Shown here: in pieces, positions 1,553 to 15,824 of the stretch
Layout of the letters: each line of letters begins with the position of its first letter
How positions within the stretch are numbered: position 1 is the first letter of the stretch
Source of the DNA: a virus
Taxonomy: Duplodnaviria; Heunggongvirae; Uroviricota; Caudoviricetes
Reading direction: 5' to 3' (one strand)
DNA: 47,932 nucleotides
Virus record (IMG/VR): IMGVR_UViG_2737471844_000006
The notes under the pieces: model-generated
Told to the model about the DNA's origin: nothing
The model's database searches: none
The model's input: only the letters and a program-made list of their open reading frames with translations
Position numbers and translations under genes: made by a program

Positions 1553-1741
1553 TCACGAGGACTGAAGTTTCTCGCAATTAAAATTAATCAGTTTTACTTT
1601 CTGCTCTCTGGAAACGCCTGCTTCTTTTTTACCTGAGAGCATTTTTTCGCATTCTGATTTCGTTAGTTTAGATTTTGAATATCTTGTCCAGTTAGTAGGA
1701 GTGCCACCTTCCTTTTCAATAGTGGCGGTAATTTTATACAT
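1553..1741 (-). CDS. ydaC: Rac prophage small protein YdaC-like
   Basis: 62-aa ORF (MYKITATIEKEGG...); its ATG overlaps the end of ralR; position matches Rac gene order. Confidence 0.55.
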   Translation of the reverse strand: MYKITATIEKEGGTPTNWTRYSKSKLTKSECEKMLSGKKEAGVSREQKVKLINFNCEKLQSS

Positions 1742-2793: not shown

Positions 2794-5407
2794 TTGCATA
2801 TTCCTTAGCCCAGCGGGGCAGTGATAACGTCTTAATAGCTGGCCATTCATCGGTATTGAGGCAGTCAGCCAGGGTTCGCAGATTGCGGTGATATTCCAGC
2901 TGACCTGCCAGTTTTGCTTCTTCGCCCATCATGAAAATTTCAACCGGATAACGTCCGCATTCAATAGTTGTGCTGGCAACCAGAAAAACGAAAGTTGGCT
3001 GCACTCCAAACTGTGCTTCATAACCGTCACTGTAGAATGCATCCTGAACGTGATAGCGGTAGTCGTAATAAGCGGTTTTGAATCGTTGAATATCCGCCGT
3101 AGTTTTCACGTCCATAATCCAGTGAAATTCAGGGATAATTTTGTCCGGACGGCACCGACACAAAATTCCTGTTTCAGGATCTTCCCAGTAAATTGATGAT
3201 TCAGCGTGTCCGGCGCTTTCAACAAGCCATTGCCCCAGCGGCAAAGCCATAACGCTTTGATACATGAGTTCAATTTTCCAGCCTTCTTCCGCAGTGATAA
3301 CCGTTTTTCCTGTGCTTGCGCATTCCATCAGAAACGCTTTCTCTTCTTCTTTTCCGGCGTTTGTACGGCGGTTAAATTCAGGTGCTACGATAAAGCGGTT
3401 ACTGAATTCTTCCGGTTCAAGTACCCGGCAGTGGAAAGCGGTTCCTAAATCGAGCGTTTTTGTCTTTGTGGTGTCCACGGGGGCATTTTTACGCCACAAA
3501 TACAGTGCCGGAGTATCAGCAATGTCGTCGAGCTGAGACTTACTGACACCGGGACCCGCGTGGTAATTCTCATTCGAAATTCCGTAATAAATACCTGGCT
3601 CTATGTCTTCTACGATTACGGGATCTGCGACTTCGCCAGTTTCATCACTGCAATCGTGATGCGGATCGCTGCCAGCATTCTCATTGTGCGGATGTTCAGC
3701 GCCTTCCATTTCCTCCGGATCATTTTCCTTAGCTTCAACCTGATTCTCTTCATCGAATGTTTCCTGGTATGTTGCGTCGCCCATCACCGCACCATAGTCA
3801 GGGCAGTTATCCCCGCCAGTCTGACCGCAGGCATTGCAGACTATTTCCGGTTCCTGTTGCACTACTGGCTCAGGTTGTTTCACATCCGGGCTGGTTTTTT
3901 CCGTTTCTGGCGTGTTTTGTTCCGTTTCTGGCTGGTTCTGGTACACAGAATCGCGAGTCTGGATCCCCTTAACCCATTTCGGATTGTTCGGGTCGCTAAT
4001 TCCGTCAACAAATTCACCACGTGATGCAGCAAGCAATTTATCGGCATCGACAGGATTTTTTGATGGAATGTTTTTCCGGGCTTTATGGAGTTCTGCCCGC
4101 AGTTCCTGATATTTCGCATCAACAGAATTTACCTGTGACTGAGCATCCAGCGGCTGCGTGTCCTGATGATGTTTAGTTGCGTCCGGTTCCATTGTTTCAG
4201 CCTCTCCCTGTTCATCTGCCGTTGTTCCAGATGGTTGCGGTTTTTCTTCATCATCCTGTTTTCCTTCTTCTGTTACTCGCTGCGGTATTGGGGCAGAGGA
4301 GCGACCGCAGGCAATATCCACGATTTCCGGATCAGGGTTGGCATGATCGGTTTCAGTCAGTACTTTGTTCAGATATTCAGTGACGTGCGCGGGGATGACC
4401 TCGATCCCAATTGGTGCTTCTTTTACGGACGCAACCACGATGGCGCGGGAATAATCCAGCCCGCCAGGCATGGTGATGAATTTGTCGCGGAAAACAGAAA
4501 AGGGCGGTTTATTTTCAGCGATAATTTCCTCAATGCGTTTAGCGTGTGCCGGATGAAGGTTATAGATGTCCAGATCCATTGAGCGGGCCAGTACGCCAGT
4601 GGCTACGTCGCGCGCCAGTGACGTCAGATCGTGTACGAAACCTTCGCCGCGATCGGTGAGGTTTCCGCCGCCAGCATTAGCACCGGAAGCCGTGCGAGTG
4701 ATGTGTGAAACACGATTACCCTTCATCCACTCTTTTGTCAGCAGTCCTCGATCGGTGTAGTCAGCGTTCAGGTATGCTTCGAAAAAAGCAGTTATCAGTC
4801 CCAGGTTTGAATTACCAGGATTAGGGAAAACTTTGTCAGTGTCACGAACCAGTTTGTGGAGATCGCGAATTTCCAGCGGGTCGAGCAGGCTGGTTTTGTG
4901 GGAAACAGCCAGGGCAGTAACAGCCGGTAGTTCTTCAGCCCGAGCAATGTGTAATGCCTGGAGTCCGTCGCGTGAAACGTGCGTTACCGGTTTTTCGCTG
5001 CCGTGTTGAGCAAGCCAACGAATGGGCAGTTCCTGGCCAGAAATTGGGAGTAGCATATTATCCTCAATCTCAGTCATGTCTTCGCCGTTGACGTTGGTAT
5101 TGCCTTGATAGTGAGCGTTGTCTGGTGCTGCTCCCGGTTTTAGTTCCCATGTCATGGAGTCTTTGCTGAGTTGATAGCGTTCACTCCAGGTAAAATCGAT
5201 CTCACCTTCAGTGGGCAGGTCATTAACGACAGGAAAATTCGTGGCAACAGGTTTAAAATAGCTGCTCAGTTTTTTACCTGACTTAACGAGCAGGTAGTCC
5301 AGAGTGGCACAGGTCGATTCAAAATCGTCGCTTGCCCACAGGACGACGTCAGGTTCACCGGATGATTTTTTCGCTTTCCGTAAAAGGAAGAGTGGTTTTG
5401 TGCTCAT
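2786..5407 (-). CDS. recE: Exodeoxyribonuclease VIII RecE
   Basis: 873-aa ORF starting [20 protein letters not shown]..., recognisable as RecE; 3' end overlaps recT start. Confidence 0.95.
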
Positions 5408-5505
5408 TGTTTTTTAACCTCAACTCAGATTAAAATTACTGCGAGTGATGAATAAATGTCCCAGGTTCTTCACTCAGGCCTGCACGTTGTGCAGGCTTTC
5501 TTTTT

Positions 5506-12620: not shown

Positions 12621-12648
12621 AAATAAAGCCTCCTAGGAGGCTTTGATT
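12621..12648. terminator. Bidirectional rho-independent terminator
   Basis: Perfect palindrome AAAGCCTCCTAGGAGGCTTT between convergent genes, T/A-rich on both sides; overlaps the MTase stop. Confidence 0.6.
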
Positions 12649-13673
12649 ATATTAAGCAAATGTTTTCCAATCGTTTCAGACATCTTCGGAGGGACCGCAT
12701 TTCCTATTTGACGAGCCCGAGATTGCAAAGAACCAATAAATTTATAATCCAAAGGAAATGTTTGTAGACACGCTGCTTCACGAACCGATATTGCTCGATT
12801 TTGTGTTGGATGTCCAAAACGTCCATTTGAATAGCTAATACAACGAGTTGTTAGTCCGCTGGCTGGTTTGTCCCAACTCAAACGTCCATATACGTCTGTA
12901 TGCCCTTTATGGTTACGATGGCATTCTAAAATCAATTCATCTGGCCAAAATTCTCGACTTCCACCTTCAGGAGTGCATTTTATTCTACGCAAATTAAGCT
13001 CTGATAAGCGTGCAGCTTCATGATCAGGAATACTATTATGCTTTTCTCCTGCTTCTATCTTCGGTAAATTAGCGATCCAGTCCTTTACTGTTGAATAGGG
13101 AGTATTTCCAACCCCATGTGTAGGAGAAGGCAATGCGACATAAAAATCCTTGGATGCAATGAGCACTAATCTTTCTCGCGTCTGTGGTACACCGTACCAC
13201 GCAGCTGGCATTACTTTATAATCTACACTATATCCCTTTGATGAAAGCATTTCTAAAAACATCATGAATGTTCCTTCATTTTTGTTAAACTTTTGCATTC
13301 CTGGCACGTTTTCAACAAAAATAAAATCAGGCATATAATGCTCTACAAAACGACTGAATTCCTTTAATAGATCTAATCGTGGATCATCATTTTTTTTATT
13401 TGAGTTTTGCTTAGAGTATGGTTGACAAGGCGCACATCCTGAAAAAAGAATGTAATCATTACGATGTTTTTTTACTAACTTGTTTATGGCATTGTTGTCG
13501 ATTAACCTAATGTCCGAGTTAATAAAAGCAGCCTGCGGGAAATTTGCACGAAATGAACTGGCTGCATCAACGTCGAAATCGAGGCCAAAAACAATATCCA
13601 TTCCAGCTTGATGGAAACCTTGGCTGGTTCCACCACAACCGGAAAAGAAGTCAAACACTTTGATTTTTTTCAT
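12633..13673 (-). CDS. DNA (cytosine-5)-methyltransferase
   Basis: C5-MTase motifs in order: FSGCGG (I), PCQ (IV), ENV (VI), QTRER (VIII), GNAVPP (X); start at ATG 13673 with GAGGG SD; low GC. Confidence 0.9.
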   Translation of the reverse strand: MKKIKVFDFFSGCGGTSQGFHQAGMDIVFGLDFDVDAASSFRANFPQAAFINSDIRLIDNNAINKLVKKHRNDYILFSGCAPCQPYSKQNSNKKNDDPRLDLLKEFSRFVEHYMPDFIFVENVPGMQKFNKNEGTFMMFLEMLSSKGYSVDYKVMPAAWYGVPQTRERLVLIASKDFYVALPSPTHGVGNTPYSTVKDWIANLPKIEAGEKHNSIPDHEAARLSELNLRRIKCTPEGGSREFWPDELILECHRNHKGHTDVYGRLSWDKPASGLTTRCISYSNGRFGHPTQNRAISVREAACLQTFPLDYKFIGSLQSRARQIGNAVPPKMSETIGKHLLNIIKAS

Positions 13674-13696
13674 TTTTCCCTCTGCATCCAGAATCA

Positions 13697-15526
13697 CTAC
13701 CTAATGATACCACGGTCAAGAGCCTGAGTAATTATTTTTCTTATTTTTATAAATTCAGGTAATTCATTTTTAAGTCTTGCGGTCATTATTTTTTGGATGC
13801 AAAAAATCTCCTCTGCATTTACTTCTTCTTTATCATACAGGTGTTGCGCTAATAATCTTATTTGATTCTTATACAGTTCTGGATCATTAGAACTCCAGGT
13901 CTGTGAATCAATTATTTCTTTTTCACTTGGCGTAATTGCCTTTTCAATGAGTAATTGTTCGGGAGTATCAAATGGTAAATACTGCACTTTATTGAATGCA
14001 TACTCAAGCACTTGCCTTTTGAGTCTATTAGATTCTTGTTCATTTTTTTTGCCATTACTACCACTGGCATTGATAATTAACTCGCAACCATAATATTTGC
14101 ACATTGTATTAACTAAATCAGCATCAGCAATTTCACTAATTCTTACTGGTTTTATTTTTTTGTTTTTATCACCATCAAGTAAAAACAAAATATCATTGCG
14201 TTCTACCACAGCGTAACTGGGAAGATGCTTGCTTAAAATGGTCTCCGAACCACCTGGTATATAACTTACACTAAATGATAAGCTTAATCTTTCATCATTT
14301 TTAATCGCTTTATCTATAATTGCTTTAGCTAATTTATCTTCTACAATTATTGTTTTCTTGTTAATATCATGTCCTAGCTCTATAAAAGCTTCATCCGGTG
14401 CTATATTTTGAACTATTTTAGCTGTTTCATTCTCTTCATCAAAAACAAATAATTTAATGGCATCTTTGGGAAGAGTGTTCACAATAACAGGAGAATGGGT
14501 TGATATTACCACTTGATGTTTTTTCTGCTCAACAATAGAGTACAGAACATCCATCATCCTTTTCTGTGCACCAGGGTGAAGTGAAACTTCTGGTTCGTCA
14601 AGAAGAATTAATGAATTAGGTTTGGCCGAATAAATATTGAGTATTAGTGAAACTATTGCAAATTCACCACTTCCAGCAAAAGCTTCTGTATAGTTCAACT
14701 TATCAGTTGAAAGTAAAGCGGTTCCTCCTCTGGTTCCAAATAACCGATGCTCAAGAAATTTAATGACTTTATATTTTTTCCCTAATATAAATGAGACGTG
14801 CTCAACTAGTTCTGGCGCCAAGGTTATATTTTTAACAATGGTTTCCGCCCCCCAAAGTCTTAAATTACTTAGCTTTTCATCAAAAGCTTTCTTTATATAT
14901 TTAGATTTGCTTCTGATATAGTCTTGCTTTGTAATTAATACACCACTCTTCTTCTTTCTTAATTTAAAATCAGAGTGATACATACATCTATCAAATGCAC
15001 TTATTTCCGATCTGAAATCTAGGAAAACCAATCCCTTCTTGATTTTTTTCCATCTGGTTGCATTACTATTAGCACCCAGATCATCCGAAATACTCTCCAT
15101 GTTATCACCAACAGATGGTCGACTTGTTTCCCAATAATCGATTGTTTTCTTGGTAGCATTGATACGCGCTTGGAGTATTTCAACTAAACGGCCATCAGCA
15201 TTTTTATATCCATATATATATCTAGGTTTAAGAGAACTGCCATCAGCAAGTTTTAGGTCAGGAAACTCATCTGTTTCAGTTGTGAACCAATAACGAGTTA
15301 TATTTTTACCATGTGGGCAACCAAATAGCGCTTTGATAACAGAACTTTTATTAGTTCCATTTTTTCCTACTAAAGCCGTTATAGGGAACTGAAAATCGAT
15401 CCTTGCATTCTGCTCTATATTTTTAAAGTATGGAAAACGGATATGTTGTATGAATGGTTCAAATTCACCGTTTTTTAACGCGCACTGGAGTGTTCGAATT
15501 ATGCTCTTGTATGCGGAAGTGCTCAT
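13697..15526 (-). CDS. OLD-family-like ABC ATPase with putative C-terminal TOPRIM nuclease region
   Basis: 609 aa; deviant Walker A LVGKNGTNKSS, Walker B LILLDEPEVSLHP, H-loop ISTHSP, then TIIVEDK and ILFLLDGD resembling TOPRIM Glu and DxD; low GC; MTase ATG follows 24 nt after its stop. Confidence 0.8.
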   Translation of the reverse strand: MSTSAYKSIIRTLQCALKNGEFEPFIQHIRFPYFKNIEQNARIDFQFPITALVGKNGTNKSSVIKALFGCPHGKNITRYWFTTETDEFPDLKLADGSSLKPRYIYGYKNADGRLVEILQARINATKKTIDYWETSRPSVGDNMESISDDLGANSNATRWKKIKKGLVFLDFRSEISAFDRCMYHSDFKLRKKKSGVLITKQDYIRSKSKYIKKAFDEKLSNLRLWGAETIVKNITLAPELVEHVSFILGKKYKVIKFLEHRLFGTRGGTALLSTDKLNYTEAFAGSGEFAIVSLILNIYSAKPNSLILLDEPEVSLHPGAQKRMMDVLYSIVEQKKHQVVISTHSPVIVNTLPKDAIKLFVFDEENETAKIVQNIAPDEAFIELGHDINKKTIIVEDKLAKAIIDKAIKNDERLSLSFSVSYIPGGSETILSKHLPSYAVVERNDILFLLDGDKNKKIKPVRISEIADADLVNTMCKYYGCELIINASGSNGKKNEQESNRLKRQVLEYAFNKVQYLPFDTPEQLLIEKAITPSEKEIIDSQTWSSNDPELYKNQIRLLAQHLYDKEEVNAEEIFCIQKIMTARLKNELPEFIKIRKIITQALDRGIIR

Positions 15527-15539
15527 TGTTTACTAAAGT

Positions 15540-15671
15540 CCATAATAGGCTAACAGGTTGAGGATGACATGATAGCGATTTTTAATGCAGATAAAAGAGG
15601 TTTGTTGGTTACCACACAACAGAAAAAGTGACCTTACCGCTTGAACGAAAGGTAAGGGTAAGTAGGCTGTG
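15540..15671 (+). promoter_or_regulatory. hok leader / presumed sok antisense region
   Basis: Inferred from hok-family architecture; individual elements not resolved; no obvious overlapping mok ORF. Confidence 0.3.
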
Positions 15672-15824
15672 ATGCAGCAAAAGACGATGTTAATCGCCCT
15701 GATTGTCATCTGTATTACCTTCGTTGTGATGGCACTGGTAACAAGGAAAGACTTCTGCGAGGTACAAATCCGAACCGGTCAGACGGAGGTCGCTGTCTTC
15801 ACAGCTTACGAACCTGAGGAGTGA
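15672..15824 (+). CDS. hok: Hok/Gef-family type I toxin
   Basis: 50-aa ORF not in track: MQQKTMLIALIVICITFVVMALVTRKDFCEVQIRTGQTEVAVFTAYEPEE, near-identical in pattern to HokD/RelF as recalled. Confidence 0.85.
   Translation: MQQKTMLIALIVICITFVVMALVTRKDFCEVQIRTGQTEVAVFTAYEPEE

Follow-up and report, generated by a model that had tools for sequence, protein, structure and literature searches.

We have analysed a 2.9-kb cassette of two genes carried by a 47,932-nucleotide (nt) stretch of DNA, hereafter the window, which corresponds to the IMG/VR virus record IMGVR_UViG_2737471844_000006 (Caudoviricetes). The cassette encodes a protein of 609 amino acids (aa) that resembles the OLD nucleases, combining an ABC ATPase with a predicted Toprim nuclease domain, and a DNA cytosine-5 (C5) methyltransferase. 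It is a real, conserved, and uncharacterised two-gene module, a variant of OLD nucleases and of nucleoside triphosphate (NTP)-dependent restriction-modification systems that is not categorically new. Regarding its function, we hold with somewhat more confidence than doubt that the cassette is a methylation-protected, ATP-dependent restriction module of the OLD type.

Linkage and identity of the two genes

The two genes form a conserved, reciprocally exclusive, and obligately linked pair. A census of genomes yielded 80 loci with ATPase homologues (31-64% identical), distributed over Proteobacteria, Actinomycetota, Bacteroidota, Bacillota, Patescibacteria, and other groups, and 72 of these loci contain a C5 methylase of the same cluster. 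The methylase gene is directly adjacent on the same strand in 58 of the 80 loci (downstream in 43 and upstream in 15), and in 14 further loci a third gene separates the two, the methylase gene being 1-2 kb upstream. Several of the loci that seem to be exceptions lie at the end of a contig. A second census, performed on the viral contigs of IMG/VR, gave 61 ATPase loci with room for a neighbour, 58 of which have an adjacent methylase, several of these pairs being convergent; in the remaining 3, the methylase lies 0.75-4.6 kb downstream. The linkage also holds in the reverse direction: among the methylases of viral contigs with upstream room, the ATPase gene is directly upstream in 43 of 43 that are at least 57% identical to the methylase of the window, and in 0 of 36 that are at most 55% identical. 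In many relatives the genes overlap by 1-4 nt or are separated by 16-40 nt, and the pairwise identities of ATPase and methylase correlate (r = 0.57). The three counts (genome, viral, and reverse) rule out a chance juxtaposition of two prophage morons. Gene-neighbour clustering of the related loci revealed no recurring helicase, and none of the top homologues is a fusion of the OLD-like protein with a methylase.

These data bear on the possibility that the two proteins have independent functions, i.e., that the OLD-like protein is a stand-alone defence such as P2 Old or HEC-04, and the methylase an orphan that would protect phage DNA from host restriction or regulate genes. Orphan methylases are common phage morons. 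Furthermore, HEC-04 and P2 Old do work as single genes (PMC10568477; HEC-04 preprint, 10.1101/2024.01.29.577857), and a few OLD-like genes, located in defence islands, have no adjacent C5 methylase (loci L044, L065, and L054). Nevertheless, the pair persists across phyla and outside prophages, whichever gene comes first, and the stop codon of one gene often overlaps the start codon of the other. The cross-phylum pairing, the reciprocal and exclusive linkage, and the correlated divergence together render independent functions very unlikely.

One of the OLD-like genes without a methylase (L065, 5941-7752) lies 466 nt from a gene (4759-5475, minus strand) that encodes an AspBHI-type N-terminal domain (1.1e-62). 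AspBHI is a 5-methylcytosine-dependent enzyme, and this arrangement, found in a single case, could be a modification-dependent counterpart of the module. Relatives also adjoin Type I methylases and other defence genes.

A preliminary description of this DNA, made from its sequence, had interpreted the two minus-strand genes as a tight operon and had named several motifs in their products. Both open reading frames (ORFs) are present, the methyltransferase gene following that of the 609-aa protein downstream:

13697-15526 (including the stop), minus strand: OLD-like ABC-ATPase/Toprim gene (OLDL), 609 aa, ATG start; ORF, Pfam (AAA_21, AAA_15, SMC_N), PADLOC, and AlphaFold model
14411-15526, minus strand: ABC ATPase region, about aa 1-372; K60 at 15347-15349, S286-G-E at 14663-14671, D310/E311 at 14594-14599, H344 at 14495-14497
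13700-14410, minus strand: C-terminal Toprim-like nuclease region with helical extension, aa 373-609; E396/D397 at 14336-14341, D451-G-D453 at 14168-14176, E523 at 13958-13960, K553 at 13868-13870
12633-13673 (including the stop), minus strand: DNA cytosine-5 methyltransferase gene, 346 aa from the ATG; catalytic Cys83 at 13425-13427; PF00145, TIGR00675, and PADLOC

The N-terminal half of the OLD-like protein is an ABC ATPase of the OLD/PtuA/AriA type. Pfam matches it over aa 1-370 with AAA_21 (1.8e-20), AAA_15 (3.3e-20), and also SMC_N, and finds nothing further in the protein. The motifs of the preliminary description, i.e., Walker A (GKNGTNKSS), Walker B (LILLDEPE), the H-loop (ISTHSP), IIVEDK, and FLLDGD, were all recovered and mapped to codons, K60 being the Walker A lysine, S286-G-E the signature motif of the ATPase, D310/E311 the Walker B residues, and H344 that of the H-loop. 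The PADLOC profiles that match the protein all represent defence ABC ATPases, namely HEC-04 (5e-34), the retron I-B ATPase-Toprim (2.7e-26), PtuA, AriA, Old, and GajA. The retron profile (ATPase-Toprim_I-B) aligns to aa 42-464, reaching into the Toprim region, and the Old model covers aa 301-368 only. Every NCBIfam model scores far below its cut-off, the top PHROG has no assigned function, and the best PDB sequence, found with a profile of 24 homologues, is Thermus OLD (6p74), matched via the ATPase part only. No Pfam or PADLOC model of a restriction-endonuclease family is among the matches listed for this protein. Structurally, the ABC head resembles those of Rad50, SMC, and RecF. The ATPase family is discrete, with 558 clusters at 50% identity reaching E ≤ 1e-30 in a search of 1.84 billion representatives.

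The preliminary description had also placed a TOPRIM fold in the C-terminus. Profile searches bore out the ABC ATPase and the C5 DNA methylase that it had named and did not extend to this domain: the C-terminal region of about 240 aa has no Pfam Toprim or OLD-Toprim match, the whole protein being searched at E ≤ 0.1, 18 isolated C-terminal domains gave no Pfam Toprim match even at E ≤ 10, and searching PDB sequences with a profile of the C-terminal domain was likewise negative. The Toprim fold was identified by structure comparison only. In the AlphaFold model of the protein (mean predicted local distance difference test score, pLDDT, of 83), the best structural matches of the C-terminal domain, obtained with two search methods, are the C-terminal region of a class 2 OLD protein, AriB, TsOLD, and GajA, i.e., OLD-family Toprim domains, in agreement with the proposed fold. 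The structural matches of the protein also include PtuA.

The residues K60, S286-G-E, D310/E311, H344, E396/D397, D451-G-D453, E523, and K553 are invariant in the 80 homologues wherever the sequence is complete. This invariance and the strong Pfam E-values indicate that the motifs are not chance matches. E396/D397 and D451-G-D453 are the predicted Toprim metal ligands (Glu and DxD). According to its structural model, the 609-aa protein is an OLD-like ABC-ATPase/Toprim enzyme, whose Toprim domain is too divergent for existing sequence models. The combination of ATPase and nuclease in one subunit, as in ATP-dependent (Type I/III-like) restriction subunits, can be predicted with good confidence. 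We found no recognisable sequence-reading domain in the protein.

Judging by its sequence, the methyltransferase is an intact canonical C5 enzyme. The full-length protein matches PF00145 (DNA_methylase, 4.9e-61) over profile positions 1-322 of 324, as well as TIGR00675 (1.4e-48) and the PADLOC model MTase_II (1.3e-96). Motifs I (FxGxG), IV (PCQ), VI (ENV), VIII (QxRxR), and X (GNAVPP) appear in canonical order and are invariant in 16 orthologues, and the five strings read in the preliminary description (FSGCGG, PCQ with C83, ENV, QTRER, and GNAVPP) are all there. The invariance of the catalytic residues suggests that methylation itself is under selection. Within the main clade, the methylases are 55-72% identical to that of the window, whereas the ATPases are 34-64% identical, and the target-recognition region of the methylase is also well kept. 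Since the methylase is the more conserved partner and this region is maintained, the main clade methylases probably have one specificity in common.

When the methylase (12633-13673, minus strand) is compared by sequence with solved structures, the catalytic domains of eukaryotic DNMT1 come first (E about 1e-38), and the bacterial enzymes M.HaeIII and M.HhaI follow at a clear distance. This methylase lineage is partnered elsewhere in bacteria with MORC-like GHKL ATPases, which recalls the eukaryotic DNMT/MORC link. We also considered a tRNA methylase of the DNMT2 type, which is unlikely given that the DNMT2 match is weak (5e-11) compared with those to DNA methylases and that the linkage to Vsr points to DNA methylation.

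Variant operons and the function of the module

We propose that the cassette works as a defence module resembling restriction-modification systems, complete in itself and able to move horizontally. The methylase would introduce 5-methylcytosine at one short target sequence of the host genome and of the prophage, and the OLD-type enzyme would attack incoming DNA devoid of the methyl mark in an ATP-dependent manner, resident DNA being protected by the methylase. In the weakest step of the proposal, it is the methylase that would recognise the target site, as happens in Type III systems, or that would at least read the methylation state. This role is suggested by a nuclease that has no sequence-reading domain and is equally similar across different types of partner methylase. 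The correlated divergence (r = 0.57) and the overlapping genes are indirect hints that the methylase might be complexed with the restriction subunit, giving it specificity. The conserved methylase catalysis also counts in favour of a restriction-modification function, since an orphan methylase would give no defence alone, and so does the occurrence of gene orders typical of restriction-modification systems, including the convergent pairs. The identity of the domains and the linkage of the two genes point the same way, as does the setting: a low-GC cassette within a prophage, a second allele at another moron site, and defence genes beside relatives.

The operons of the relatives are informative in this respect. 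A four-gene operon, found in 10 of the 80 loci and in two gene orders, encodes the methylase, a GHKL ATPase (HATPase_c_3, often with a Hypoth_Ymh domain), the OLD-like protein, and Vsr; the window contains no GHKL ATPase gene. In loci L069 and L072, an M.HpaII-like methylase, an HpaII-type endonuclease, and, as third gene, the OLD-like protein are encoded with overlapping stop and start codons, and in three actinomycete loci (L012, L038, and L020) a SmaI-type endonuclease is encoded beside the pair. The OLD-like protein is about 33-40% identical whichever its methylase partner, be it of the main clade, the GHKL variant, the HpaII-like, or the SmaI-associated type. The HpaII-like methylases show 25% identity and the SmaI-associated ones about 30-34%, and the OLD-like protein that accompanies them shows no greater divergence than it does within the main clade.

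GHKL/HEF_HK, receiver-domain, and HNH proteins accompany the nearest methylase relatives that have no OLD-like gene (47-51% identity), so this methylase lineage as a whole is tied to NTPase-based partners and not to simple endonucleases. In loci L191 (5056-8031), L193 (686-4007), L194 (767-5808), and L070 (1394-5994), such methylase relatives are flanked by large proteins in which a MORC-like GHKL domain is joined to a HEF_HK histidine-kinase module and by receiver-domain proteins, with an HNH protein in one case. The neighbourhood of these four loci looks like a two-component-like restriction-modification system, which in L070 is accompanied by the OLD-like gene and by a NucS/PD-(D/E)XK-like protein. 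One locus encodes a GHKL/HEF_HK protein and a Response_reg_2 protein in the interval that separates its methylase from its OLD-like gene.

Vsr is encoded in 16 loci overall, sharing the operon with the OLD-like gene in the four-gene variants, which speaks for DNA rather than RNA as the target of the methylation. Its presence is also relevant to the idea that the OLD-like protein is a DNA-repair accessory that handles damage linked to cytosine methylation (T:G mismatches or stalled methylase adducts), in the manner of MutS/Vsr or SbcCD. The resemblance of its ABC head to Rad50, SMC, and RecF would fit this idea, as would its linkage to C5 methylases of several lineages, including those with their own endonuclease. 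However, a substitute for Vsr is not needed where Vsr is encoded in the same operon, so a role as Vsr substitute was ruled out. Moreover, the module sits at prophage moron sites and in defence islands, and its closest sequence relatives are all defence ATPases, and thus we give a repair function hardly any credit.

Several points weigh against restriction as the role of the OLD-like protein. A classical Type II endonuclease gene is also carried by 5 of the 80 relatives (HpaII-type in the same operon, SmaI-type adjacent), and since this endonuclease is present, the OLD-like protein is not needed there as the only restriction enzyme; it may be an effector in an accessory or back-up role and not the restriction enzyme proper. 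In addition, the nuclease gene is the first of the operon. A toxic restriction enzyme entering a new host would normally follow its methylase, unless there is an internal promoter or a slow activation. The proposed function is, besides, assigned to a family known from its sequences and a predicted structure. Finally, the characterised OLD relatives are abortive effectors, PARIS AriB and, according to a 2026 preprint, P2 Old cleaving tRNA.

According to the main rival explanation, the OLD-like protein would be a back-up or guard effector, i.e., an abortive-infection nuclease (DNase or tRNase) that remains silent while the methylase, or its restriction-modification system, works. Like PARIS beside Type I systems, it would fire when a phage interferes, for instance by DNA mimics, S-adenosylmethionine depletion, or anti-restriction proteins. 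We consider this explanation unlikely, albeit one that deserves to be kept in mind. The closest characterised relatives of the protein are abortive sensors, as judged by both the PADLOC matches (PtuA, AriA, GajA, Old, and HEC-04) and the structural ones (AriB and PtuA). The operon of L069 and L072 already holds M.HpaII-like and R.HpaII-like genes, and the pairs of L012, L038, and L020 lie by a SmaI-type system. OLD-ABC/Toprim modules found in BREX and restriction-modification-like loci have been read as 'backup suicidal effectors' in a comparative genomics study of 2026 (PMC12839542), and HEC-04, a single-gene ATPase-Toprim, defends alone and is toxic on induction (10.1101/2024.01.29.577857). 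On the other hand, the methylase is the sole partner in 58 of the 80 genome loci and in most viral loci, leaving no endonuclease to guard, and its catalytic residues are invariant. Phage anti-restriction proteins are not known to target any Type II C5 methylase. The reciprocal and exclusive linkage to one methylase clade is, in turn, what would be expected if the mark itself protects against the nuclease, as the restriction-modification reading proposes.

Prophage context and distribution

According to its gene order, compared with that of the nearest RefSeq match (strain EC11), the window belongs to a Rac-like lambdoid prophage of Escherichia coli. In EC11, the order is recE, kilR, racR, ydaS/ydaT, replication genes, DUF1627, DUF977, the two minus-strand genes, a Hok/Gef gene, and the genes of the nin region. 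A scan with Rfam detected the small RNA RalA, the antitoxin of the Rac toxin RalR, at 1557-1735 (plus strand; 223.8 bits compared with a gathering score of 170), and its presence in the window confirmed the Rac-type identity of the prophage. The cassette is thus located between the replication and nin regions, with both genes on the minus strand. The GC content is 33.8% in the ATPase gene and 38.8% in the methyltransferase gene, compared with 51.7% and 47.3% in the flanks, so both genes are indeed more AT-rich than their surroundings, as had been described. The cassette is a low-GC insert, a moron of the Rac-like prophage.

The following elements of the cassette accompany its two genes:

13674-13696, minus strand: intergenic spacer of 23 nt, in which a GAGGG ribosome-binding site precedes the methyltransferase ATG by 4 nt; read from the sequence
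12624-12645, no strand assigned: palindromic GC-rich hairpin AAAGCCTCCTAGGAGGCTTT, with T-runs on both strands; terminator scan (same hairpin on both strands) and reading of the sequence
15542-15570, minus strand: candidate sigma-70-like promoter (ATGTCA, 17-nt spacer, TATTAT) just upstream of the ATPase ATG; weak, from a consensus scan

The gene junction reads ...AGG TAG TGATTCTGGATGCAGAGGGAAAA ATG, where TAG is the stop codon of the ATPase gene. The preliminary description of this junction holds for the GAGGG, the ATG, and a GTG that overlaps the stop, but the spacer, to which it had given 24 nt, measures 23 nt. The GTG, at 13697, is an alternative in-frame start of the methyltransferase, and the ATG is favoured because the N-termini of homologues and the RefSeq annotation agree on it. 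The hairpin at 12624-12645, which overlaps the methyltransferase stop codon, is predicted to be a bidirectional terminator common to the methyltransferase gene and the upstream plus-strand DUF977 gene. A shared terminator of this kind had been proposed earlier, and the perfect palindromic hairpin and the T-runs on both strands agree with it. Its 20-nt perfect palindrome contains CCTAGG. The promoter scan was uninformative in this AT-rich stretch, with 17 sites compared with 12.4 expected from shuffled sequence, and the site at 15542-15570 stays as a candidate.

Directly upstream of the ATPase gene, and divergent from it, there is a 51-aa ORF of a Hok/Gef-family toxin (15669-15824, plus strand), which the RefSeq entry of EC11 assigns to the Hok/Gef family; in the window, the Rfam scan gave no sok-like RNA at or above the gathering score. 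With this gene upstream and the methylase downstream, neither a helicase, nor a reverse transcriptase, nor a split AriB-type gene adjoins the cassette of the window.

The exact cassette is present in 32 of 5,426 complete E. coli genomes, always in the chromosome, and RefSeq labels its products as 'ATP-dependent nuclease' and 'DNA cytosine methyltransferase'. In EC11 (NZ_CP027255.1; L001, 10098-11928), a 1-nt indel splits the ATPase gene into two coding sequences and the methylase gene is intact. This may be a case of nuclease decay with methylase retention, an order that supports the restriction-modification reading, because it is the one expected if the nuclease is the dangerous partner.

A second allele (L082-L085, 6001-8835), with an ATPase 39% and a methylase 63% identical to those of the window, is found in other lambdoid prophages of E. 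coli, with the antiterminator Q gene on one side and the holin/lysis genes on the other. It was found in 8 genomes at an identity of at least 99%, with weaker matches in 10 more. In Stx phages, this moron site is occupied by the Stx toxin genes. The module is common among the prophage-derived contigs of IMG/VR. No homologue was detected in 50,697 genomes of isolated phages by either DNA or protein search, and one distant relative was found in 72,556 plasmids. This frequency in prophage contigs, the absence from isolated phages, and the near absence from plasmids suggest that the module may ride mainly on cryptic or rarely induced prophages.

Comparison with known systems

OLD nucleases recur as effectors in the immune systems of bacteria (P2 Old, Gabija, retron Eco8, and PARIS), and how they discriminate self from non-self is unsettled for most of them. 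If our proposal is right, an OLD nuclease tied to a methylase would offer a simple and tractable answer for one branch of the family, and a Toprim-based nuclease would join the list of restriction enzymes. If the protein were instead a guard that fires on disturbed methylation, this would be a new trigger logic for OLD-type effectors. The module is small, native to E. coli prophages, and available as two divergent alleles with clear residues to mutate (K60, E396, and D451/D453 in the nuclease; C83 in the methylase), and thus it is directly testable in E. coli. The similarity of the methylase to DNMT1, together with the MORC-like partners of its lineage elsewhere, also bears on the prokaryotic roots of the eukaryotic methylation machinery. 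Many ABC-ATPase/Toprim systems are already known, which tempers the surprise of a new module.

The four described OLD classes share the layout of the window protein, in which an ABC ATPase at the N-terminus precedes a Toprim domain bearing a conserved Glu and DxD: Class 1 (P2 Old and Thermus OLD), Class 2 (GajA), Class 3 (the retron Eco8 effector), and Class 4 (PARIS AriA/AriB). None of them has been described with a methyltransferase partner (PMC10568477), whereas the window protein has a C5 methylase in nearly all loci. The preliminary description had called such a pairing unusual, which is right with regard to these classes; the pair itself is not rare, the ATPase family comprising 558 clusters. 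Class 1 proteins are encoded by solitary genes, whereas the window family is methylase-linked (72 of 80 genome loci, and 61 of 61 viral loci with room). GajA of Gabija (Class 2) occurs with a helicase, and the gene downstream of the window protein is that of the methylase. Class 3 proteins are retron effectors, while in the window no reverse transcriptase ORF is adjacent and RalA is the sole Rfam match. In Class 4, the AriA ATPase and the AriB Toprim are encoded by separate genes, whereas both are fused within the 609 aa of the window protein. Judging from its structural model, the protein belongs to the OLD family in a broad sense, and it fits no described class.

HEC-04 gives the best PADLOC profile match (5e-34) and is likewise a fused ABC ATPase-Toprim; its defence of E. 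coli against phages depends on the Walker A lysine and the E/D/D metal site (Payne et al., 2024, preprint, 10.1101/2024.01.29.577857). Only part of the 494-position profile is matched, positions 160-383 aligning with aa 232-459 of the window protein, and HEC-04 differs in being a shorter single-gene system inside Hma loci that has no methylase partner. The PARIS-like OLD-ABC/Toprim modules of BREX loci (PMC12839542) share with the cassette an OLD-type ATPase-Toprim unit physically tied to a DNA-modification system. However, they accompany BREX cores with an N6-adenine methylase and their own effector, whereas the usual partner in the window family is a lone C5 methylase, and the fused ATPase-Toprim of the window differs from the split AriA/AriB. 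Type II restriction-modification systems have an endonuclease of a recognised family and use no NTP, whereas the partner of the methylase in the window matches no such model among those listed and carries a complete ATPase.

As far as catalogues are concerned, PADLOC 2.0, NCBIfam, Pfam, and PHROGs contain no dedicated model for the pair, REBASE being outside the search. An existing entry, like the lack of a nuclease fold, would have counted as a refutation according to the preliminary description, and neither outcome was obtained in the databases queried. A literature search for an OLD/Toprim protein paired with a cytosine methylase found no paper, although an earlier in silico mention is possible. 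The likeliest place for it is the survey by Krishnan and co-workers (2020, NAR 48:10045), which reportedly covers ABC-ATPase conflict systems 'acting independently or together with restriction-modification systems'.

A bolder proposal, which we advance tentatively and with more doubt than belief, is that a sequence-blind OLD-type nuclease with a C5 methylase as its DNA-recognition and self-marking subunit constitutes a distinct and widespread class of restriction-modification. Carried by E. coli prophages, it would represent a fifth, methylase-coupled class of OLD proteins and the first kind of restriction-modification to be based on a Toprim nuclease, sharing its methylase lineage with the MORC-like GHKL systems.

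BsuMI, LlaJI, and CglI/NgoAVII are NTP-dependent restriction systems protected by C5 methylases. In these systems, as well as in the MORC/paraMORC operons (Iyer et al., 2008, PMC2292703), the logic is similar to that proposed here, a C5 methylase protecting against a restriction component built on an NTPase and not on a simple PD-(D/E)XK enzyme. The MORC/paraMORC operons have a GHKL ATPase gene (PMC2292703), which is lacking in the window and present in 10 of the 80 related loci. By analogy, the NTP-dependent, C5-protected restriction systems and the MORC/paraMORC operons would be the closest functional counterparts of the cassette.

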